A DNA stretch of 64,000 nt from an uncultured bacterium. Lineage in GTDB: Bacteria > Krumholzibacteriota > Krumholzibacteriia > Krumholzibacteriales > Krumholzibacteriaceae. The stretch spans positions 128,001 through 192,000 of the forward strand of contig CAWFAD010000007.1 in the NCBI GenBank assembly GCA_963813815.1, read 5' to 3'. The translations under genes and the position numbers were made by a program. Numbering within the stretch: the first letter of the stretch is position 1; every line of letters begins with the position of its first letter. The notes under the pieces were generated by a model. That model was not told where the DNA came from. It searched no databases and saw only the letters and a list, made by a program, of their open reading frames with translations. Below are positions 37,055 through 52,568 of this stretch, piece after piece.

Positions 37055-37230
37055 GCGGTGCATCCTCTCTCGAACGGTGCCGTTGCCGTCATAATACCGT
37101 ATCGACCCCGCGGGGGCAACCGCCGATGGCCACTATTTTCGAATCGAATCCGGCGAGCGGGCCGCGCGGCCGCGAGGGGCACCGCTCGAAAATCATTGCG
37201 CGTCCGCGCGCGTTCGGCGATCATCGCCTC

Positions 37231-38965
37231 GTGACGCGAAGGCAGGCGAGAGCGTTCCTGCGCGCGGCCTTTCTGGCCGCGCTGCTCGACCCGCCGCACG
37301 GGATCCTCTCGGGAGCCCGGGGGGCGGAAGGGGCGCTTGTGGCCGGGGAGGCTCCCGCGGTGGAAGCCGTATTTTACAACGGGACGATATACACGATGGA
37401 CGCCTCCCGGTCCGTCGTCGAGGCCGTCGCGGTCGGCGGCGGCAGGATCGTCGGGCTCGGAAGCTCGGCGGATCTGCTCGCGGGGTGTCCGTCCGGCGCC
37501 GCGCGGATCGATCTCGGCGGCCGCGCCGTCATTCCGGGGCTCACGGACGCGCACGCTCATTTTCTGAGCTACGCCGAGAAGGCGGCGTGGGCGGATCTTC
37601 GCGGCACCCGCTCATCGGAGGGTGCGCTCGCCCGAGTCGCGGGTCACGCGCACCGGACGGGCGACGGGTGGGCGCTCGGAAGGGGATGGGATCAGAACGA
37701 TTGGCCGGAGGCCGTCTATCCCCGCCGGGACGGGATCGACGGCGCCGTCCGGGGCCCCGCCTACCTCGTTCGCGTGTGCGGGCACGCGGCCTGGGTCAAT
37801 ACCGCGGCTCTGCGCCTCGCCGGCATCGACGCGCGCACTCCCGATCCCCCGGGAGGCAGGATCGCGCGCGACGCCTCCGGCGAGCCCACGGGGATTCTCT
37901 TCGACAACGCCATGGATCTCGTTTCGAGGCACATTCCGTCCTTCGATGCGGCCGAGAAGAAGCGGCTGCTCCGCGAGGCCGCGAAGCGGTGTCTCGCCGC
38001 GGGACTCGTCGGCGTGCACGAGATGGGCATCGGTCCGGACGCGGTCTCGCTGTACGAAGAGCTCTACGCCGCGGGAGAGCTTCCCTTCCGCGTCACCGCT
38101 TACCTCGAGGGAAGCGATCCCGGACTCGAGAGCCTCCTCGAGGCCGGGCCGTCTGGACCGGGGGGCGCGCGATCGATTCTCGATCGTCGGCGTGAAGTTC
38201 TACGCCGACGGATCGCTCGGCGCGCGCAGCGCCGCGCTCCTCGAAGACTACGATGACGATCCGGGGAACCGCGGCATTATGGTCACCGAGCCGGACACCC
38301 TCTCCGCGCGGATGCTTCGCTGCCATGATCGCGGTTTTCAGATCGCGGTGCACGCGATCGGCGACGCGGCCGTCCGCGCCGTGCTCGACCAGTACGAAAG
38401 GACGCTCAATCTTCGCCCCGCGCCGGACCGGCGACACCGGATCGAGCACGTTCAGCTGATTTCCCGCGCCGACATTCCGCGACTGGCCTCTCTCGGCGTC
38501 GTTCCCTCGATGCAGTTCACGCATTGCACCTCCGACATGCCCTGGGTGCGCTCACGGATCGGCCCCGCACGCGAGACGGGCGCCTACGCTTGGCGCTCGA
38601 TCATCGATTCGGCCGGGAGGATCCCCGGAGGCAGCGATTTTCCCATCGAATCGATCGACCCCTTGCTCGGCATCCACGCCGCGGCGACGAGAGCCGATCT
38701 CGATGGAAATCCCCGGGGCGGCTGGCATCCGGGGGAGCGCCTCACCGTGTACGAGGCGGTGAAGGCCTTCACGGTCGATGCGGCGTGGGCGGCTCACCGG
38801 GAGGATATAGCCGGCGACCTCTCTCCGGGCAAGCTCGCCGACTTCGTCGTGCTCTCGGACGATATATTCGCGGCGGAGGCCTCCGACATACCGCGAATCC
38901 GCGTGCTCGCGACGATTCTCGGTGGCGAGATCGTTCACCGGGCCGGCGATTTTCCGCTTCACTGA
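37231..38965 (+). CDS. Amidohydrolase, YtcJ-like (frameshift in G-run near 38160-38165)
   Basis: IPGLTDAHAH; GRGWDQ; GHAAWVNT; then KFYADGSLGARSA, HAIGD, HRIEH, GGSDFP, GKLADFVVL; start uncertain. Confidence 0.85.
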
Positions 38966-40681
38966 ATCTTGCGTTCGATGACCGGAAGGGGCAGCCCCCG
39001 CTCCCGCGCGAGGAGGGCGCGAGCCTTCTGCCGCGGTCTGCCGGAGACGTCCGGCTCCGTCATCCGCTCGACCATGCGCTCGACGAGAATCATGGAAATG
39101 CCCGGCCAGGCGACCGACGGAGAAACCGCGCCGGCAAGCGCCTCGCGCTCGCCGTCCTCCCGCTCGAGACGAGCCGTCTCCACGAAATAGCCCGCCGCCC
39201 TTTCGGTCGTGAGCGTGCCGGTGTGGATGCGAAGAACGACGACCGTCCTCGCGAGGCGCAGGGTCCAGTCGTCGATGAGACGCAGGTAGAGCTCCGGATC
39301 GTTCTTTCGCAGATTTTCGGCGATATCGGCGAGCGCGAGGTGGGCGAGCCCCTCGCGCCACGTTTCGCTCGCGAAGACCACGGCAACCGTGTCCGCCGAC
39401 TCGCAGACGAGGCGGTCCGCCTCGAGGAGGGCCGGAGCGGCCGCGAGCAGGGCGTAGCGGAGCGCCCCGTCGTCGAGTCGCGGGGCGTAGCCTGAGAGGA
39501 GAACGAAGGGGCGGCACGAGCCGGAACCGAGGGGCGTGACGCCGGCGATCACCGCGGGAGCTTCGAGGATCGGAAGGGAGAAGTAGGGACTTTTCGGCGC
39601 CGCCGCGGCGAAGCGCGTGTCCGCCGGGGCGCGGATCGACGGCGCCGGGCCGCGCGAGACGCCGAAGGAAACGCCCCGGCCGCCCGAGGTCCACAGCGTG
39701 TCGATGGCGCGCGAGGCGAACGCCCCGGGCGATTCGGAGGCGCCCACGGCCGGCATTCTGAAAAAGCGCGCGCGGGGGGCGCCGCCCGCGGCCTCCGCGC
39801 GGCCTTTTTCCGCCTCGAGCCGCTTCGCCGCCGAGGCGCGATCGGCGGCGAGCCTCGTGATTCTCCGTTCGGCTTCCGCGACGAGCATGTTCGGATCGGC
39901 GTCGAGGAGCTCGTCGTGGAGGAACACCATCGAGAGATTTTCCGCCCCGAGGATGAGCCCGCCGCGGGCGGTTGCGAGAAGCGGGCCGGCGAGATGATTT
40001 TTCAAGAGAGAGAGAGCCCCGCGAGCCGACTCCAGCTCGCCGTCGAAGGGCCTTCCGTATCGCGCCTCGGCGAGCCGGCCGATGTCGTCGATGCGCGAGT
40101 CGAGCTCGTCGAGCCTCATGACGGCGAAACGCGTGTGCGCCTCGGCGGGGTTGCGGAGCGACCGCGTCGCGTTCGAGCAGAGCTCCGCGATTGCGAGCAC
40201 GCGCCGGCGGTACGCCTCCGCCTCTCCCGGCCGCGCGGGCCCGAGCCGCGAGGGCATCTCCCCGAGCGCCTCCTCCGCGGCGCATACGTAGAGGAGGGGG
40301 CTCGTCCGCTGGATGGCGAGCGTCTCGAGCGCGAACCGCTCGCCCCGCGCCCAATGGATCATCACGCGAGCCTCGTCGACGTCGCGCTCCGAGAGCCCGG
40401 CCGCGCTGAGCTCCGAGAGCCGCCGGTCGAGACGCGCGAGACTCTTCACGGCGGCGGCGATCTCCATCCTCGCCGTAGACGAAGAGAAGCGAATCGGCGC
40501 CGGCGAACCCGAGACGGGAGGAGCGAAGCGGATGGATCTCCACATAGAGGCGCACGGCCTCCGCGGCGAGGCGGCGGTACGAGCTTCCCTCGTCCCTCGT
40601 TTTTCCGCCTCCGCAGCCGTGCTGAGAAGCAAGGACGAGGACGATCGTGAGGACGAGAGAAAGATGTCGTTTCACGCTCAT
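38959..40681 (-). CDS. DUF885-like lipoprotein, divergent (frameshift near 40466)
   Basis: Lipoprotein-like leader (..QHGCGG); HPLRSSRLG; C-terminal EGLAHLA..LRLARTVVVLRIHTG resembles the DUF885 EGWA.Y..R..R...D...H region. Confidence 0.6.
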
Positions 40682-40848
40682 GGCGGCCTTCCGGGGGACG
40701 CGGCTCCGTTCAACGCGCCCCCGCATCATGCTATATACCGGCTCGACGGGCGGGAGTAAACAGCTTTCGTCGTTATGGCTTGAGCGTCGCGGGGAAGGGC
40801 GGGTATACTGTGGGCCGGCGGTCCTCATCGGGACGCGCCGGAGGAAGC

Positions 40849-43138: not shown

Positions 43139-44674
43139 TCATCGAAGGAGCAAGACCTTCGTCGTTTCTCTCTTCTTGTCCGCTTTGACGACGGCGAAGT
43201 AGAGGCCCGGAGCGAGGGGCGCTCCGTCGTCGTCCCTGCCGTCCCAGACGACCTCATGGGTGCCCGCCGGAAGGGTCATCCTGCCGAGGGAGCGCACCCG
43301 GCGTCCGTCGACGGCGTAGAGATCGATGGAAGCGGCGCACGCCTCCTCCACGGAAACGAGCACGCGCGTCGATTCGCGGAAGGGATTCGGACAGACTCCG
43401 AGGGAGAAGGGCGTCGGCGCGTCCGGCGTTTCGCCGCCGTCGCCGCCGACGCCGTTCTCCGGGTCGAGATACTCGCGATAGTAGATTTCGCGGTTTCCGT
43501 CGCGCAGGTCGACCCACGCGACATGCAGGTCGGCGTTCGGTCCGGCAATGAGACAGCACAGATCGCTCGCGGCGTCTCCGTCGGAGATCCTCGTTGGACT
43601 CCACCAGACGCCGGCCGATTTTCGCCTGAAGAATATCTCCGAGTTGAAATCGGAGACGTGCGTGTCCCAGTACGCGAGCACCACGTCGCCGCCGGCGATG
43701 TCGATGCTCGGATGGTAATGCGTGCACGGCTCGTTCGTGACGGCGATCTCGCCCTCCCATCCTCCCGGCCCGCGGCGCCGGTAGTAGATCTGTTCGAAGG
43801 TGCCGCGCGCGTCGATCCAGGCGACGTGAACGTAGCCGCTGTCGTCGACCGCGATCGTGGGCCGCATGGCGTTCATCGCGGGATCGGTGACGAGCTCCTC
43901 GGCGAGCCAGACGCCTCCGGTTTTGCGGCGGTAATAGATCTTGCCGTTGTCGCCCCATGCGTCGGTGCGCGTATCCGCCCAAGCGACGTGCAGCGAGCCG
44001 TCCGGCCCCCGGTCGATCGCCGGCACGAGGCGGTTCCCCGTCTCCACGGCCGTGAGCGCCGTCGCCGCGGACCACGCCATGCTCCTAAAGGCGCGGTACA
44101 TGATCTGCGTGGCGAGTCCGATGGTCTCCATGTAAACCATATGGAGCGTGTCGCCGACGCCGACCAGGGCGGACGCGTAGGAATCGCCCGACGTGCTGGT
44201 GACGCGCGTCTCCTTCGACCATGCCCCGAAGGCCCAGAACCGGTGATAGATCTCCATGTTTCCGATCCGGTCGTCGTTCCACGCGAGATGCACGACGCCC
44301 GAGCCGTCGGCGGCGAGGTTCGGGCGGGCCGATTCTCCCTCGTCGAAGGTGAGCCGTTCCTCGGAGCCCCAGATGCCGCCTATTCTCGCCCGGTGATAGA
44401 TCTCGAAGTTGCGGTCCCGGTCGTCGCGCCAGACGATGTGCAGACGTCCGTCGGAGTCCACGGCGAGATACTTTGCGTTGTTCGGGGCCGTGCTGGAGGT
44501 GCCGGCATCGAAGGTGAGCCGCGTCTCGGCCTGCCAACCCGGCGTCTGGGCATTGGCTTCGCGCACGGCGGGGGAGGCGTGGATCGAGAAGGCGAGCCAC
44601 GCCGACAGGGCTATTTTACAGAATGAATTGCGTTTGACGCAGAAGGCGCGGTGGATGCATGATGGAAACCGCAT
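43139..44674 (-). CDS. Secreted repeat (beta-propeller-like) protein with FlgD-Ig/T9SS type A C-terminal domain
   Basis: About 50-aa repeats DxxGxLHxxWxDxRxxNxEIYxR; C-terminus PNPF..DLYAVDGRRVR..WDGRDDDG..PGLYF..KVLLLR; start uncertain. Confidence 0.8.
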   Translation of the reverse strand: MRFPSCIHRAFCVKRNSFCKIALSAWLAFSIHASPAVREANAQTPGWQAETRLTFDAGTSSTAPNNAKYLAVDSDGRLHIVWRDDRDRNFEIYHRARIGGIWGSEERLTFDEGESARPNLAADGSGVVHLAWNDDRIGNMEIYHRFWAFGAWSKETRVTSTSGDSYASALVGVGDTLHMVYMETIGLATQIMYRAFRSMAWSAATALTAVETGNRLVPAIDRGPDGSLHVAWADTRTDAWGDNGKIYYRRKTGGVWLAEELVTDPAMNAMRPTIAVDDSGYVHVAWIDARGTFEQIYYRRRGPGGWEGEIAVTNEPCTHYHPSIDIAGGDVVLAYWDTHVSDFNSEIFFRRKSAGVWWSPTRISDGDAASDLCCLIAGPNADLHVAWVDLRDGNREIYYREYLDPENGVGGDGGETPDAPTPFSLGVCPNPFRESTRVLVSVEEACAASIDLYAVDGRRVRSLGRMTLPAGTHEVVWDGRDDDGAPLAPGLYFAVVKADKKRETTKVLLLR

Positions 44675-44861: not shown

Positions 44862-46546
44862 ATGAGAACCGGTTATCGAATCGCAGCTCTCCTCGCACTC
44901 GGAGCGGCCGTTTTCTGCGTCCCGGGATGCGGTCCCGGCGGGGGCGAGGGCTCGAGCTCCGGAGGGAGGGCCGACCCCGGCGGGCCGGCCGCTCAGGGCG
45001 GCCGCCTCGTCATCGGCATGCAGCAGGAGCCCGAGATCCTGAACGAAGCCGTAAACTCCATGGTCGCGTCCGTCTACGTCTGCAACCTCATCTTCAGCAA
45101 GTTCGTGAAGTACAACGACCGGCTCGATCTCGTTCCCGATCTCATCGAGGAGATTCCGACGGTGGAGAACGGCGGCATCTCGCCCGATCATCTCGCCTAT
45201 ACCTATCGCATCAGGAAGAACGCTCGCTGGCACGACGGCGTTCCCGTCACCTCCTACGACGCGAAGTTCAGCTGGGAGGTCATGGTGCATCCTGACATCA
45301 ACGTCGAAACGCGCCAGGGCTGGGACGTCGTCCGTCGGGTGGAAACGCCGGACTCGCACACCGTCGTTTTTCACCTCCGCGAGATATACGCGAACTTCGC
45401 CGGGGATTGTTTCTACGACGAGTCGGTGCTGCCGCGGCATCTCCTCGCGGGCGAGCTCGGAAGCGGCTTTCAGACGGCCTCGTTCCACCGCCGCCCCGTC
45501 GGATCGGGTCCCTTCGTCTTCAAGGCGTGGGTGCCCGGATCGCACATCGTCCTCGTGGCGAACCGCGACTACTACGGACCGGGTCCCTATCTCGAGGAGA
45601 TCGTGATCAAGTTCATTCCCGACGGGAACGCGCTCGTCATGCAGCTCGAGACGGGCGAGATTCAGGGGATCGATAACGCGCCGAACTCGCTCCTCGGAGT
45701 CGTGGAGCGCCTCGGCGGGGTGCGTCTCTATCGAAATCCGGCGCTCTTCAACGAGCATCTCGATCTCAACTGCGAGCATCCGATTCTGAGCGACGCGCGG
45801 GTGCGCCGCGCGCTCGCGCTCGCGACCGATCGCCGGGAGCTCTCCGAAAAGATTTACGACGGGGTATGGATCCCCGCGCACGGCGACGATCATCCGCGTT
45901 CGGCCTACTACCATCCGGCCGTCGAGCGACTCTGGGCCTTCGACCTCGCGCGGGCGAAGGGGCTCCTCTCCTCCGCCGGCTGGGTCGACCGCGACGGCGA
46001 CGGAATCCGCGAGCGGGACGGCAAGCCGCTCCGCCTCGCGATATCGACGACGACGGGCAACCTCAACCGGGAACGCACGGAGCTCGTGCTCCGCGAGCAG
46101 TACGCGCGCATCGGCGTCGAGCTCGAGATACGCAACTACCATCCCGCCGAGCTCTACGCGAGCTGGGACGAAGGCGGGGTGCTGCGCCGGGGAACCTTCG
46201 ATATCGCGCTCTATGCGTTCCTCACTCCCCCCGACCCGTCGACGAAGGACGGGTCGTATTCGGAGGCGTTCATTCCTCCCTCGGGGCAGAATTTCACGCG
46301 CATCAGGAGCGAAGTCCTCACGAGGCTCCTCGCGGCGGGATCGCGCACGGTCGCTTTCGCCGAGCGCAAGCCGATCTACGACGAGATCGCCGCCGTCCTC
46401 GCCGAAGAGGTGCCCGTCATTCCGCTCCTCTGGGTGACGCAGCTCGACTGCATGCCGGCATCGCTCGAGGGCTACCGCCCGAATCCGACGCAATCGGGGG
46501 ATACCTGGAACGCGAACGAGTGGCGTCTGAGGGGGGCGCGCGATGA
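44862..46546 (+). CDS. Peptide ABC transporter substrate-binding lipoprotein (stop out of frame as assembled; probable indel in G-run 46531-46536)
   Basis: Lipobox VPGC; QEPEILN; PTVENGGIS; WHDGVPVT; PVGSGPF; DGDGIRE; natural end TWNANEWRL at about 46530. Confidence 0.85.
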
Positions 46547-48006
46547 AGGCCCGGGCGCTGGTGCCCGTCGCGGTGCTCGTCGCGGCCGTGCTCGCTCTCA
46601 TGCAGCTCGGTCTCGGCCGGTCGACGCGGGGCGGCGCCGCCGCGCCTCGGATCGAATTTCGCGGAGCCGCCCGCAGCGTCGGGGGGTCGTGCCTCGTCGT
46701 GACCGCGGGGGACATCAGGTTCGCCGTCGATTGCGGAGCCCTCGGGGAGGAAGGGGGAGGCGAGATCCCGGATCTGCCCGATTCCCTTTCCTTCGTCGTT
46801 CTGACGCACGCCCACACCGATCACTGCGGACTCCTGCCCGAGCTTTTCAAGGCCGGTTTCGAAGGCCCCGTGTACTGCACGCGGGCGACGGCGGAGATCG
46901 CGCCCATCATGCTCGGCATGATGCAGGGATTGTCCCGCGCCGCCGTCGGGCGGGACGTTTTCGACCGGACGGTCTCCGGTTTGCGCGGCGTGCCGTTCGG
47001 GATGACGGTCGAGCACGGAGGAGTGCGGCTGCGCTTCCGGCGCGCGGAGCATCTCCTCGGAGCGGCGTCCGTCGAGCTCTGGCTGCCGGCCGGAGACGAC
47101 ACGGTGCTGCTCGTCGTCTCGGGCGACATCGGCGGCGGCAACTGCCCCCTCGTCCCGCCGCTCGAAACGCCGGAGCGGGCGGATTACGTCGTTATGGAGT
47201 CGACGTACGGGGGGGTCGTCCGCGATCCGGAGGGCGGCGATCCGGGGGCGGGGCACGAGGAGTTCGCGCGGGCCGTCGGGAAGGCGCTGCGGGATGGAGG
47301 CGACGTGCTCATTCCGGCGTTCACCCTCGGACGGACGCAGGAGATCATGGCGGTCATCGACCGGTATCAGCGCGCCGGCGTCATCCCAGCCGAATCCGAA
47401 ATCTACGTCGACAGTCCGACGGCGCACAGGATAACGAACGTGTATCGCGAGCTCCGGGACGAGCTCTCCGACGCCGCGCGGGATCAGTATCCGGGCGAGC
47501 CGCTCAGGTTCCCGTCGCTGAGGGAGGTGAGAAGCCGCACGTCGATGAAGGTTCACGATCGCCGCCACGCTCCGGCCGTCTTCGTCTCCTCGAGCGGCGA
47601 CCTCGCCCACGCCAACTCGCCGCGCCACCTCATGCGGATGTTCGGGCGCCGCGAGAATCTCCTCTGCATCATCGGCTGGCAGTCCCCCGGCTCCCCGGGG
47701 GCGCGACTCCTCGGCGGGGAGAGCCCCGTTCTCATACGGCACCGGGAGGGGAACGAGAATCTCGATGACTGGATCGCCCCGGTCCTCTCCGTGACGGCGT
47801 CTTCCGCCTTTTCGGGGCACGCCGACGCAACGGGGCTCGTGCGCTGGATCGCGGGGGTGCGCGGCGCGCGAAAAGTGTTTCTCGTCCACGGCGATGAAAG
47901 CCGCGCGGAAGCGCTGGCGGAATCGATCCGGCGGACGCTCGGTCTCGATGTCGAGGCGCCCGGGCGCGGAGCGATTCGCGAGCTCGTCCCCGTGCGCGGC
48001 TCGTAG
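46543..48006 (+). CDS. MBL-fold beta-CASP nuclease with N-terminal hydrophobic signal/anchor
   Basis: DCG; THAHTDHCG; AEHLLGA; SGDIG; MESTYG; IPAFTLGRTQE; YVDSP; FSGHAD; LVHGD; N-terminus MKARALVPVAVLVAAVLALMQLGLG. Confidence 0.88.
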   Translation: MKARALVPVAVLVAAVLALMQLGLGRSTRGGAAAPRIEFRGAARSVGGSCLVVTAGDIRFAVDCGALGEEGGGEIPDLPDSLSFVVLTHAHTDHCGLLPELFKAGFEGPVYCTRATAEIAPIMLGMMQGLSRAAVGRDVFDRTVSGLRGVPFGMTVEHGGVRLRFRRAEHLLGAASVELWLPAGDDTVLLVVSGDIGGGNCPLVPPLETPERADYVVMESTYGGVVRDPEGGDPGAGHEEFARAVGKALRDGGDVLIPAFTLGRTQEIMAVIDRYQRAGVIPAESEIYVDSPTAHRITNVYRELRDELSDAARDQYPGEPLRFPSLREVRSRTSMKVHDRRHAPAVFVSSSGDLAHANSPRHLMRMFGRRENLLCIIGWQSPGSPGARLLGGESPVLIRHREGNENLDDWIAPVLSVTASSAFSGHADATGLVRWIAGVRGARKVFLVHGDESRAEALAESIRRTLGLDVEAPGRGAIRELVPVRGS

Positions 48007-48018
48007 GCGGGTGGCCCG

Positions 48019-49050
48019 ATGAAGCGATACGTCTGCCGGCGTCTCCTGCGCGTGATTCCGATCGTGCTTCTCGTGTCGATCGTCACCTTCACGCTGCTCC
48101 ATCTCTCGCCCGGAGGGCCCGCCGCCATCATGGCGGGAAACCGGAGCGTCTCCGAGGCGGATCTCGCGCGGATCGAACGCGGCCTCGGACTCGACAAGCC
48201 CCTTCCCGTTCAGTACCTCGGCTGGCTCCGGCGGGTCTTCTTCGGTTTCGATTTCGGGAGGAGCTACGCGACGGGAGAGCCCGTCTCGCGTATGATTCTC
48301 GATCGGGCGGGGGCGACGCTCGAGCTCATGGGCGCTTCCTTCGTTCTCGCCGCCCTCTTCGCCTTTCTGGGGGGAGCCCTTTCGGCCGTCCGGCGGGACA
48401 GGCTCGCCGACCAGATTCTCTCCGTGCTCTCCGCGGCCGGTCTATCGATGCCCGTCTTCTGGCTCGGGATCGTCGCGATCTATGTCTTTTCCCTGCGCCT
48501 CGGCGTTCTTCCGAGCGGGGGGCGAGAGACGATCGGCGCGTCGGGCGCCGCCGACCATCTGCGGCATCTCGTCCTCCCGGCGCTCGTTCTCTCCGCCGGC
48601 TTCGCCGCCTCGTGGAGCCGCTACGTGCGCTCGCAGCTCGTCGAGACCATGCAGAGCGAGTTCGTTCGCACGGCGCGCGCGAAGGGGCTCGGCGAAGGGA
48701 CCGTGATCTGGAAGCACGCGCTGCGGCCGTCCCTGCTGCCCGTTCTCACCGTGATGGTGCTCCATCTGCCGGCGCTCTTCACCGGCGCGGTGATCACGGA
48801 GACCGTCTTTTCCTGGCCGGGAATGGGAAGGCTGTTCTACGAGGGGCTCGCGCGCCACGATTATCCGCGCGTGCTCGGCGTCGTCGTCGTATCCTCGTTT
48901 CTCGTTATTCTCGCGAACCTCCTCGGCGACATTTTGAGCGCGGCCGTCGATCCGAGAATCTCGCTCGAGCGCGCGAGCGGCGCCGCCGCGGCCCCGCGCC
49001 GGTCCGAGCCGGGCGCGCCCGCGCCGCGAGCGCCGGAGGAGGGGGCATGA
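48019..49050 (+). CDS. Peptide ABC transporter permease (OppB-like)
   Basis: PGGP; GLDKPLPVQY; FVRTARAKGL; ETVFSWPGMGRL; DPRI. Confidence 0.92.
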   Translation: MKRYVCRRLLRVIPIVLLVSIVTFTLLHLSPGGPAAIMAGNRSVSEADLARIERGLGLDKPLPVQYLGWLRRVFFGFDFGRSYATGEPVSRMILDRAGATLELMGASFVLAALFAFLGGALSAVRRDRLADQILSVLSAAGLSMPVFWLGIVAIYVFSLRLGVLPSGGRETIGASGAADHLRHLVLPALVLSAGFAASWSRYVRSQLVETMQSEFVRTARAKGLGEGTVIWKHALRPSLLPVLTVMVLHLPALFTGAVITETVFSWPGMGRLFYEGLARHDYPRVLGVVVVSSFLVILANLLGDILSAAVDPRISLERASGAAAAPRRSEPGAPAPRAPEEGA

Positions 49051-49877
49051 ACGTCGAATCGGGAAACGCGCGGCTCCTCGCCTACCGCCCCGCCGTCTAT
49101 TCGATCGTCCTTCTCGCGATCGTGCTCGTCGTCTCGATCGGGGCGCCGCTCTTCGTCGCGCACGGGAGGGACGCGATCGATCTCGAGAACGTTCTCGCCG
49201 CTCCCTCCGCCGAGCATCCCCTCGGCACCGACGAGCTCGGGCGGGATACGCTCGCCCGGCTGCTCTATGCGGGGCGTTACAGCCTCCTCGTCGCGTTCGC
49301 GGCGGTCGCGATCGCCTCCGCCGCGGGGATGCTGGCCGGCGCGGCGGCGGGGTTCTTCGGCGGGGCGGTCGACGCCTTCGTCATGCTCGTGGCCGATCTC
49401 TTTCTTTCCGTGCCGGTGTTCCTCGTGCTGCTCGTGGCCGCGTCAGCCGGGGGCGGACGCCTCTGGCTCGTCCCCGTCATCATCGGGGCCACCTCGTGGG
49501 TCGAGACGGCGAGGGTGGTCCGCTCGCTCGTTCTCTCGCTTCGGGAGCGCGGTTTCGTCGAGGCCGCTCGGGCGATCGGGGCGGGGCGGATGAGCCTGCT
49601 CGCGCGGCATCTGCTGCCCGGAACGGTGCCCGCCGTGATCGTCGCCTCGACGACGGGATTCGCCCAGGCGATGATCGCCGAATCGGCGCTGAGCTTCCTC
49701 GGTTTCGGCGTCCAGCCCCCGGCGCCGACGTGGGGGAACATGCTGCAGAACGCCCACCTCTTCATCCGGGAGGCGCCTGCGGCGGCGATCGCGCCCGGTT
49801 TCATGATCTTCGTCACCTGCCTCGCGTTCCACTACGCCGGCGAGGGGCTCCGCAGGAAGCTTGCCAGGAACGATTGA
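49047..49877 (+). CDS. Peptide ABC transporter permease (OppC-like)
   Basis: HPLGTDELGRD; ESALSFLGFGVQPP; GEGLR. Confidence 0.92.
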   Translation: MNVESGNARLLAYRPAVYSIVLLAIVLVVSIGAPLFVAHGRDAIDLENVLAAPSAEHPLGTDELGRDTLARLLYAGRYSLLVAFAAVAIASAAGMLAGAAAGFFGGAVDAFVMLVADLFLSVPVFLVLLVAASAGGGRLWLVPVIIGATSWVETARVVRSLVLSLRERGFVEAARAIGAGRMSLLARHLLPGTVPAVIVASTTGFAQAMIAESALSFLGFGVQPPAPTWGNMLQNAHLFIREAPAAAIAPGFMIFVTCLAFHYAGEGLRRKLARND

Positions 49878-49896
49878 TGCCGCTAGAATCTCCCGC

Positions 49897-50944: not shown

Positions 50945-51484
50945 TCAGATTTCTTCCGTCCAGAGTCGCCGCAGCTCCTCGCGTCGCTCGAGAAAACGCC
51001 TGATCATGCGCTCGTGCGACTCGAAGGCCAGGTCGGGAAGGCTCGCCGGATCGGAGAACGCGAGGTCGGCGGCGTCGTCGCCGGGACGCGGTTCCCCGGT
51101 GAAGCCGGCGAAGGAATAGCCGATGAGAAGGATCGAGGTGCCGTAGAACCGGCTCTCCTGATAGATGATGTCGACGAGGGAGGGATCGCTCGCCCGTATC
51201 CCGCATTCCTCCTCGAGCTCGCGCCTCGCCGCTTCCGCCGGGCCTTCGCCCGTTTCGATGAATCCACCGGGCAGCGCCCAGCGCCCGCGACCCGGCTCGC
51301 GGCTCCGCAGGATGAGGAGGATGCGCCCCGCATCCTCCGTGACGATCGCGGTGGCGGCCGGGATGGGATTCTCGTAGATGAAGCGGCGCTCGTCCCCGCA
51401 ATAGAGACGCGTTCTCCCCTCCGATTCCCGGTGCTCGAGGGTTTTCCCGCAATACGGGCAGTAGAGCTTGGCGCTCTGCGTCAC
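50945..51484 (-). CDS. NUDIX hydrolase with N-terminal zinc-ribbon-like region
   Basis: YCPYCG; YENPIP; WALPGGFIETGE..AARRELEEECG Nudix box. Confidence 0.88.
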   Translation of the reverse strand: MTQSAKLYCPYCGKTLEHRESEGRTRLYCGDERRFIYENPIPAATAIVTEDAGRILLILRSREPGRGRWALPGGFIETGEGPAEAARRELEEECGIRASDPSLVDIIYQESRFYGTSILLIGYSFAGFTGEPRPGDDAADLAFSDPASLPDLAFESHERMIRRFLERREELRRLWTEEI

Positions 51485-51626
51485 GGTGTTTCGACCTCCG
51501 CATCGAGGATACGAGCGCCGGCCCCTTCCCGCAAGCGTCAAGTGGGAGCCGAAGTTGTCCTTGCGGGGGCGCGGGCCCTTCGCTAGCATGTGCGCGGGGC
51601 GATGCGCCGGGAGGAGAGGCGAGGGC

Positions 51627-52568
51627 ATGAAGCGAACGTTCGACATCGTCGGTCTCGGCTACACGGCGTTCGATTATCTCGGCGTCGTTCCGCGGCTTCC
51701 GGCCGAGGATTCGAAGCTCGAAATCGGCGATTTCACGATACAGGGAGGGGGCCCGGCCGCGACGGCCATGGTCGCCTCCCGCAGGCTCGGGGCGAGCTCG
51801 GCGCTCATCGCCAAGATCGGCGACGACCATTTCGGCCGCGGCATGCTCGACGGACTCGCCGCGGAGGCGGTCGACGCCTCGGCGGTCGTCGTCGAGCGCG
51901 GGGCGACGTCGCAGTTCGCCTTCGTCATGGTGAATCCGTCGAACGCCACGCGGACGATTCTCTGGACTCGGGGCACCGTCTCCCGCCTGAGGCCCGACGA
52001 GGTGGATCTCGACCTCGTCGGGTCGGCGAAGGGGCTTCTCGTCGACGACCTCGAGCCCGCGGCCGCGCTCGTCGCCGCGCGGCACGCCCGGGCGCGGGGG
52101 ATTCCGGTTCTCATCGACGCCGGCTCTCTGCGCGAGGGAGTCCGGGATCTGCTGCCCCACTGTGACTACATACTCGCGGGGGAACGCTTCGCGGAGCAGA
52201 TCTCGGGAAGCTCCGATCCGCGCGCGGCGCTGGCGACGCTCGATTCCTTCGGCCCGAAGGCGTGCGGCGTGACGCTCGGCGAACGCGGCTGCGTGGTTCT
52301 TTCGGAGGGCGCGACCATCGAGGCGCCCGGATTCGCCGTGGACGCCGTCGATACGACGGGGGCCGGCGACGTTTTCCACGGGGCCTTTCTGTTCGCGGTT
52401 CTTCAGGGATGGGACGTCGAGCGGTGCTGCGTCTTTTCGAACGCCGTCGCCGCGCTCAAATGCCGGCGCATCGGTGGCCGCGCGGGAATTCCCACGAGGG
52501 ACGAGGCGATCGCCTTTCTCGCCCGCGAGCGTCCCCGGCTCGTCTTCCCCGTGCGGGATCCGCTCTGA
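51627..52568 (+). CDS. PfkB-family carbohydrate/nucleoside kinase
   Basis: GGGPAATA; IGDDHFG; VTLGERG; VDTTGAGDVFHG. Confidence 0.92.
   Translation: MKRTFDIVGLGYTAFDYLGVVPRLPAEDSKLEIGDFTIQGGGPAATAMVASRRLGASSALIAKIGDDHFGRGMLDGLAAEAVDASAVVVERGATSQFAFVMVNPSNATRTILWTRGTVSRLRPDEVDLDLVGSAKGLLVDDLEPAAALVAARHARARGIPVLIDAGSLREGVRDLLPHCDYILAGERFAEQISGSSDPRAALATLDSFGPKACGVTLGERGCVVLSEGATIEAPGFAVDAVDTTGAGDVFHGAFLFAVLQGWDVERCCVFSNAVAALKCRRIGGRAGIPTRDEAIAFLARERPRLVFPVRDPL

Follow-up and report, generated by a model that had tools for sequence, protein, structure and literature searches.

The stretch of DNA analysed here (hereafter, the window) comprises 64,000 nucleotides of contig CAWFAD010000007.1 (positions 128,001 to 192,000) from the genome assembly of an uncultured bacterium; the assembly is 91% complete. 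At positions 44862..49877 of the forward strand the window contains four co-oriented genes (Table 1), which encode, in this order, the solute-binding protein (SBP) of a family-5 ATP-binding cassette (ABC) importer, a metallo-beta-lactamase (MBL)/beta-CASP hydrolase and two permeases, OppB and OppC. The ATG of the hydrolase gene overlaps the stop codon of the SBP gene (ATGA), and an overlap of the same type is found between the genes for OppB and OppC. An earlier, sequence-only reading of the region had pointed to a beta-CASP gene with intact motifs between the SBP and the two permeases, and the open reading frames (ORFs), the Pfam scores and an alignment of homologs bear this out. The named homologs of the beta-CASP protein come from Candidatus Krumholzibacteriota. 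The family of the enzyme, its intact motifs, its conserved N-terminal anchor, the clade to which it belongs, the gene order and the late insertion of its gene into the operon were all obtained by computation. Judging from these comparisons, the locus appears to encode a real exported form, hitherto not described, of a nuclease family that is itself known; a coupled import system is possible but unproven.

All domain models of the hydrolase score above their Pfam cut-offs: PF10996, representing the beta-CASP clamp domain, with 75.8 bits (cut-off 27.7), PF07521 with 50 bits and PF00753 with 32.6 bits, which answers the profile search that the sequence-only reading had suggested. The closest relative of solved structure in a PDB sequence search is TTHA0252 of Thermus thermophilus (E 7.3e-48), to which the structure model of the enzyme (predicted local distance difference test score 88.4) could also be superimposed by Foldseek (template-modelling scores 0.82/0.92 to 2dkf, 31% identity). 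MBL motifs 1–4 and the beta-CASP motifs A to C, as defined in an excerpt of PMC3095777, are present; motif C carries a histidine, which the same excerpt describes as the RNA-type residue. Residues D63, H89-H91-D93-H94, H170, D195, E219, H426 and H449 are invariant in 121/121 aligned homologs, and R227, R264, the DSP motif, S424 and the complete clamp domain are retained as in ribonucleases (RNases). A further His/Arg motif within the clamp domain characterises the subfamily (H342 in 121/121 homologs, H338 in 120/121, R340 in 119/121), and is followed at position 353 by D (90 homologs), N (30) or S (1). In addition, 120/121 homologs possess SG[D/N] where TTHA0252 reads SGM, a motif that presumably plays a role in RNA binding of the latter enzyme. 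We predict that the protein is most likely a two-metal beta-CASP ribonuclease or phosphodiesterase, with RNA as its probable substrate.

More specific assignments within the family were not supported. The model of aCPSF1/FttA (TIGR03675), a type marked by N-terminal KH domains, scored 210.2 bits against a cut-off of 580.2, with the match beginning only at profile position 176. The model of the Type VII CRISPR protein Cas14 (NF045584) reached 220.8 bits against 800, and a Pfam scan of 16 neighbouring ORFs identified no cas families. RNase J was represented neither among the four NCBIfam matches nor among the 26 PDB sequence matches, and the ESM Atlas returned only generic beta-CASP and OB-fold clusters.

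Rather than starting at strand 1, as soluble intracellular members of the family do, the enzyme possesses a conserved N-terminal hydrophobic helix, the orientation of which is considered below. Residues 5–25 are uncharged (mean hydropathy 2.32), and the structure model displays a single helix at residues 6–27. A hydrophobic segment of 15 residues was found in 116/121 homologs; of the other five, three are without an N-terminus, in one the start was called late and in one the segment lies outside the scanned region. The matches listed in a scan of genome contigs comprised one ortholog and 79 distant relatives, the latter serving as controls. None of the 79 cytoplasmic-type relatives, all from other phyla, displayed a 15-residue hydrophobic segment of at least 1.9 upstream of strand 1. 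Of 20 paralogs and class-level relatives, a single one had a hydrophobic stretch, which precedes an ATG located three codons ahead of strand 1. The basic-hydrophobic N-terminal segment described in the sequence-only reading is therefore real, and the start codon does lie upstream of it: Met1 is supported by the overlap with the SBP stop codon and by the basic N-termini of homologs, which on the same grounds rules out a start at Met20.

In order to assess the orientation of the helix, charges flanking it were scored in 111/121 homologs; the ten others were skipped, because their N-terminus was absent, too short or wrongly placed by the pattern. Each of the 111 sequences contains at least 15 consecutive uncharged residues, with a mean net charge of +2.7 before and 0.0 after the stretch. 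The N-terminal side is the more positive one in 97 sequences, equal in 12, including the protein encoded here, and less positive in two, whereas RNase Y encoded in the same genome displays the opposite bias. According to the positive-inside rule, positive charge preceding a membrane helix indicates an N-in/C-out topology, and the bias in the homologs thus points to an uncleaved anchor with the catalytic domain outside. The AAA given in the sequence-only reading as the end of the segment does not represent a conserved cleavage site (AxA in only 13/111). More generally, neither a cleaved signal nor a lipoprotein or twin-arginine (Tat) signal could be recognised as a feature of this subfamily (AxA in 13, lipobox in none and a loose twin-arginine motif in 14 of the 111). 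The export proposed earlier is well supported as a computational prediction by the family-wide topology, the opposite bias of RNase Y and the Sec/Tat-type signals of sister enzymes (see below), and a periplasmic orientation is very probable.

A profile search of 1.84 billion representatives, from which 150 were listed, allowed us to place the enzyme in a broader context. Eighteen representatives were picked for an N-terminal extension, by a pattern screen for 124/149 and by eye for the remainder. Sixteen of the 18 cluster with the subfamily and are separated from every cytoplasmic-type row, paralogs from the same order among them; the support was 97 with FastTree as well as with a brief IQ-TREE run that used no mixture model. 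The stem of the subfamily is long (0.61–0.69 in the trees). The enzyme is one branch of a wider clade of TTHA0252-like, probably exported enzymes, apart from the cytoplasmic-type paralogs, which relatives retain as separate genes. N-termini of the sister proteins look, by eye, like cleavable Sec or twin-arginine signals; P0131 gave a weak match to PF10518, and the signal of P0254 is doubtful. By name, one sister representative belongs to the Syntrophales and one to a candidate division. Among 80 loci retrieved in a metagenome scan, four are orthologs in the same operon, 19 are sister loci and 57 are more distant. Signal-like starts were recognised by eye in all 15 of the 19 sister loci that have an N-terminus, and 13/13 sister loci added to the tree fell in the exported clade, with the cytoplasmic control outside.

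Several members of this set deserve mention in their own right. P0176 and P0213, two signal-bearing beta-CASP proteins, were placed among rows of the cytoplasmic type, a hint that export may have arisen independently a second time. P0132 (946 residues; a cluster of three members, two of them full length) consists of a protein-kinase domain, a linker and a twin-arginine-like and hydrophobic segment, followed by an exported-clade beta-CASP domain. P0125, P0126, P0129 and P0186 share paired cysteines, one after motif B and one in the C-terminal tail, suggesting a disulfide.

In 7/19 sister loci, a signal-bearing OB-fold gene is located directly downstream of the nuclease gene (six of these were used to build the profile, while that of L203 is independent); no such gene was found at any other locus in the set examined. 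An OB-fold domain is also fused to the enzyme in P0200 (residues 37–127, pairwise E 1e-10). The Pfam match of the OB-fold gene is below cut-off; the nearest Atlas clusters carry the names of OB-fold nucleic-acid-binding proteins. Such a partner favours a nucleic acid as the substrate outside of the cytoplasm. The OB-fold and the exported beta-CASP proteins form a recurring two-part module for which no described function was found in the literature searched. Matches to SBP, OppB and OppC were not found at the 19 sister loci, several of which are on short contigs. A sister subgroup (L197, L198, L199, L201, L202, L205 and L206) is located upstream of an outer-membrane efflux/HlyD/AcrB gene set, as assigned by Pfam on L197, L198, L199, L202 and L205; L202 additionally contains Cas6 and NE0113 genes divergently upstream.

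Gene order was compared across a sample of 200 genomes of the phylum. A match of at least 47% identity is present in 49/50 genomes of the order (assigned to Krumholzibacteriota by the names of homologs), the genome without one being 61% complete; none of the 150 other genomes of the phylum reaches 47% among the matches listed, the best being 40%. The association with ABC transporter genes holds across the order, in keeping with the sequence-only reading: in 49/49 cases the nuclease gene is preceded by SBP and/or followed by OppB as far as the contig extends, and both sides were seen in 44. In 26/32 loci no more than 16 bases separate the nuclease start from the SBP stop codon, and 14 loci display an ATGA-type overlap. 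However, ResB, CcsB, the thiI-like gene, the Nudix gene and others are equally syntenic in the order, and conserved gene order alone therefore says little. SBP orthologs are also present in families lacking the enzyme (f7, 23/23; f9, 10/12; f5, 2/7), and all 20 outgroup loci contain SBP-OppB-OppC with no nuclease match; the gap measures 13–278 bases in 18/20 of them, the two larger values being script artefacts. Most simply, the gene would have entered a pre-existing operon once, in the common ancestor of the order; as such operons are not found next to the sister enzymes, a loss from the remaining families is less likely. In one genome (G134, locus L127) SBP and nuclease share one frame; this apparent fusion results from one additional base close to the end of the SBP gene and is read as an error or a private indel. 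A search among longer proteins for SBP-nuclease fusions was negative at E 1e-60, a weak piece of evidence. One ortholog (L008, genome G161) contains an in-frame TAG.

The transporter is of the family-5 (Opp/App) type, with a cluster C SBP and two permeases. The closest solved relative of the SBP is Bacillus subtilis AppA (Table 1), the ligand contacts of which were reportedly described by Levdikov in 2005. Cys23 of the SBP is invariant in 37 orthologs, and the invariant R403 aligns with AppA R373, whereas AppA D154 aligns with Y185, adjoined by D186/E187; both AppA residues presumably anchor the peptide. The NCBIfam Opp/Nik models all score below their cut-offs. AccA, from the phosphodiester importer of Agrobacterium, is a distant match to the SBP (E 1.6e-14 versus 5.5e-65 for AppA) and the enzyme is predicted to act outside, unlike in an acc-type system. 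Whether or not the nuclease is present, the pocket-lining segments contain a mean of 10 acidic and 2.9 basic residues, which is not what would be expected of an oligonucleotide binder. No ATPase gene is present inside the SBP-nuclease-OppB-OppC operon. The genome encodes three family-5 SBPs and a single OppD/OppF pair, found ∼58 kb from the operon on the same contig; most likely the operon's importer shares this pair, which may serve three importers. Two other regions contain incomplete sets: permease and ATPase genes with no SBP match nearby (G000:C7:112600-116500) and an SBP with no permease match (C7:227700-229300).

The explanation that we favour, although as a whole we give it slightly less than an even chance, is that of a periplasm-facing tethered RNase co-expressed with a peptide-type importer. 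The enzyme would be threaded through the inner membrane and held there by its N-terminal helix, which stays uncleaved, leaving the catalytic domain on the periplasmic side. Having descended from the wider exported branch of TTHA0252-like enzymes, its gene would have entered an existing AppA-like importer operon in a single event, in the common ancestor of the order, coming to lie between the genes for the SBP and the permeases, and would now be co-translated with the importer. Periplasmic RNA or oligonucleotides would be trimmed to nucleotides or short oligomers for salvage, while the importer would keep its peptide-type ligand and borrow the genome's only OppD/OppF pair. The operon would then be a co-expressed package that serves to scavenge debris of cells, and not a single pathway linking enzyme and transporter. 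A separate ligand for the importer is somewhat more probable than a shared one. The interpretation given in the sequence-only reading is supported in part: the co-operonic arrangement and the predicted export of the enzyme are in its favour, whereas the older operon without the nuclease, the sister loci without the transporter and the AppA-like, acidic SBP are not; import of the nuclease products by this transporter is the less probable reading.

Several observations weigh against the co-expressed package. One concerns the SBP pocket: conserved positions differ between the nuclease-bearing and nuclease-free groups at 13/51 pocket versus 12/163 other positions (p 0.002), and an excess of this kind is not seen inside either group. 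This would fit a dedicated scavenging system, in which the importer was retuned after the insertion and takes up short oligoribonucleotides or nucleotides released beside it, the SBP taking the place of the secreted OB-fold protein with which sister enzymes are paired. The conserved gene order and the close spacing of the SBP and nuclease genes described above, as well as the long stem of the subfamily, are consistent with such a system, as is the capacity of family-5 SBPs to bind phosphodiesters, exemplified by AccA in the available text of PMC4526662. Pocket-segment identity is 0.77–0.79 between families within each group and 0.54 across groups, the latter value being equal to that of the rest of the protein. 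Fixed differences across groups amount to 22/207 positions in SBP, 17/122 in OppB and 14/88 in OppC (11–16%), compared with 2/85 in the thiI-like neighbour; in SAM-HAT, however, they reach 6/55, and the transporter is not above that value. Furthermore, the pocket segments were chosen by reference to AppA, without coordinates and after both consensus lines were known, the shift can be assigned to neither branch, and there was only one insertion event. The pocket has also diverged in f5, a third nuclease-free lineage, and remains acidic throughout; the equal synteny of neighbouring genes and the lack of Opp genes at all 19 sister loci, several of them on short contigs, point the same way. We consider dedicated scavenging rather unlikely, and it is equally doubtful that the order-wide periplasmic beta-CASP RNase is coupled to a retuned family-5 importer as the first dedicated RNA-feeding ABC system.

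Another observation concerns topology, as the helix of the window's own protein is charge-balanced, with two basic residues on either side. The enzyme might then be a cytoplasm-facing, membrane-tethered RNase of mRNA decay, similar to RNase Y, that merely sits in the operon. Beta-CASP nucleases such as CPSF73, Integrator 11, RNase J and aCPSF1 are intracellular RNA- and DNA-processing enzymes and, to our knowledge, all characterised members of the family act inside the cell. The gene is also the sole RMMBL match in the assembly, and TTHA0252 affects mRNA levels, according to an excerpt of PMC4229858. On the other hand, the charge bias of the family is opposite to that of RNase Y, the sister enzymes bear cleavable Sec/Tat-type signals and relatives keep cytoplasmic-type paralogs, which may be missing here owing to the incompleteness of the assembly. 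A cytoplasmic role is accordingly very unlikely.

A search of 52 genomes of the order, with one query and no positive control, did not recover the OB-fold partner, nor was it found in this genome. Its absence there, together with SG[D/N] in place of SGM and the near-invariant His/Arg motif, would suit a small phosphodiester substrate, such as cyclic or linear dinucleotides or sugar- or peptide-nucleotides, instead of polymeric RNA; MBL-fold enzymes are often promiscuous (PMC10340364, in the part available). The enzyme would then work with or guard the importer, for example by freeing the nucleotide from a peptide carrier before uptake. Since the clamp domain is complete, R227, R264, DSP and S424 are as in RNases and no substrate-specific genes are found in the neighbourhood, we regard this as improbable. 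Finally, salvage itself lacks an evident motive: purC is present in 44/50 and pyrF in 48/50 genomes of the order, and both in this one, which rules out auxotrophy. A UshA-type 5'-nucleotidase was not found in this 91%-complete genome, so that neither the need for released nucleotides nor their downstream route is explained.

Table 1. Positions of the operon genes and associated features in the window; positions of OB-fold genes refer to the sister loci named.
Feature	Position	Strand	Basis
Family-5 (cluster C) solute-binding lipoprotein (SBP)	44862..46546	+	PF00496 245.8 bits; 1xoc E 5.5e-65; Foldseek rank 1
TTHA0252/CPSF73-type MBL/beta-CASP hydrolase, 487 residues, predicted periplasm-facing	46543..48006	+	Pfam; TTHA0252 match; structure model
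N-terminal hydrophobic helix (residues 5-25 of the beta-CASP protein), probable uncleaved N-in/C-out signal anchor	46555..46617	+	
HxHxDH metal-binding motif (H89-H94)	46807..46824	+	
Subfamily motif R327-E328-x-x-S331-x-x-S334-x-x-x-H338-x-R340-x-H342, clamp domain	47521..47568	+	Homolog alignment
OppB-type permease	48019..49050	+	PF00528, PF19300
OppC-type permease	49047..49877	+	PF00528; Opp4C model 278.6 bits, below cut-off of 350
Sigma-70-like consensus match upstream of SBP, weak	44634..44663	+	Two sites found versus 0.4 expected from shuffles; consensus only
Second sigma-70-like consensus match, before the thiI-like gene	49861-49889		
OB-fold genes at sister loci	L200:2355-2747; L203 from about 1976; L204:5648-5998; L207:1374-1724; L212:2020-2439; L214:8457-8951; L217:1022-1474		

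Elsewhere in the window, an Amidohydrolase-3 gene (37126-38965) appears to be split over two frames (37126-38256 and 37622-38965), suggesting a frameshift or an assembly error. A probable lipoprotein without a Pfam match is encoded on the minus strand (38959-40828); its N-terminal part and body are in different frames, possibly due to a frameshift. A divergently oriented gene (43139-44671, minus strand) encodes a BNR-repeat protein of the secreted type with a FlgD Ig domain at its C-terminus, which only some members of the family have at this position. The 'PfkB' label that appeared at the loci turned out to be a shadow from the opposite-strand frame of the plus-strand ORF 51468-52568, the name of which is based on its motifs; a Pfam scan of the wrong frame was blank.

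If true, the exported clade would constitute a class of secreted RNases so far unrecognised in bacteria; the list of domains for nucleases and RNases given in the available part of a secretome survey (PMC11495043) does not include this family. If the importer does take up the products, there would be a route by which uncultured sediment-type bacteria use extracellular RNA as food, and an oligonucleotide would be the ligand of a family-5 binding protein. Both the nuclease, once its anchor is removed, and the SBP should be soluble, making these predictions testable without culture. As the sequence-only reading had supposed, no described system with this layout was found in the literature searched, and neither was a description of an exported beta-CASP enzyme; most subscription papers lay outside the search.

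Known systems resemble the locus in part. The enzyme shares with TTHA0252 the MBL and beta-CASP folds, motifs 1–4 and A–C, and S424/H426/H449, which match S378/H380/H400 of the latter. TTHA0252 differs in that it starts at strand 1 and, in the available text of PMC4229858, acts on cellular mRNA; the enzyme described here carries a conserved anchor at its N-terminus, falls into a clade of signal-bearing proteins and displays SG[D/N] and the extra His/Arg motif. The App (AppA, 1xoc), Opp, Dpp and Nik systems likewise combine a lipoprotein SBP with two permeases, and AppA has the equivalent of R403, but the operon in the window is devoid of ATPase genes and contains a gene for a putatively exported hydrolase between those for the SBP and the permeases; its SBP also departs from AppA at D154, and every NCBIfam Opp/Nik model remains below its cut-off. 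In the Agrobacterium acc operon (AccA-E and the phosphodiesterase AccF), a family-5 importer is encoded together with a phosphodiesterase and has a phosphodiester ligand (PMC4526662, as far as available), although AccF works in the cytoplasm after import and AccA is distant from the SBP. SapA, which binds double-stranded RNA at the surface according to an excerpt of PMC8519434, is another of the nearest analogues. The C-terminal MBL nuclease of ComEC is similarly an extracellular MBL-fold nuclease tied to nucleic acid uptake (excerpt of PMC8579336); it is, however, fused to a DNA channel and serves transformation, whereas here a separate beta-CASP protein is encoded beside an ABC importer.

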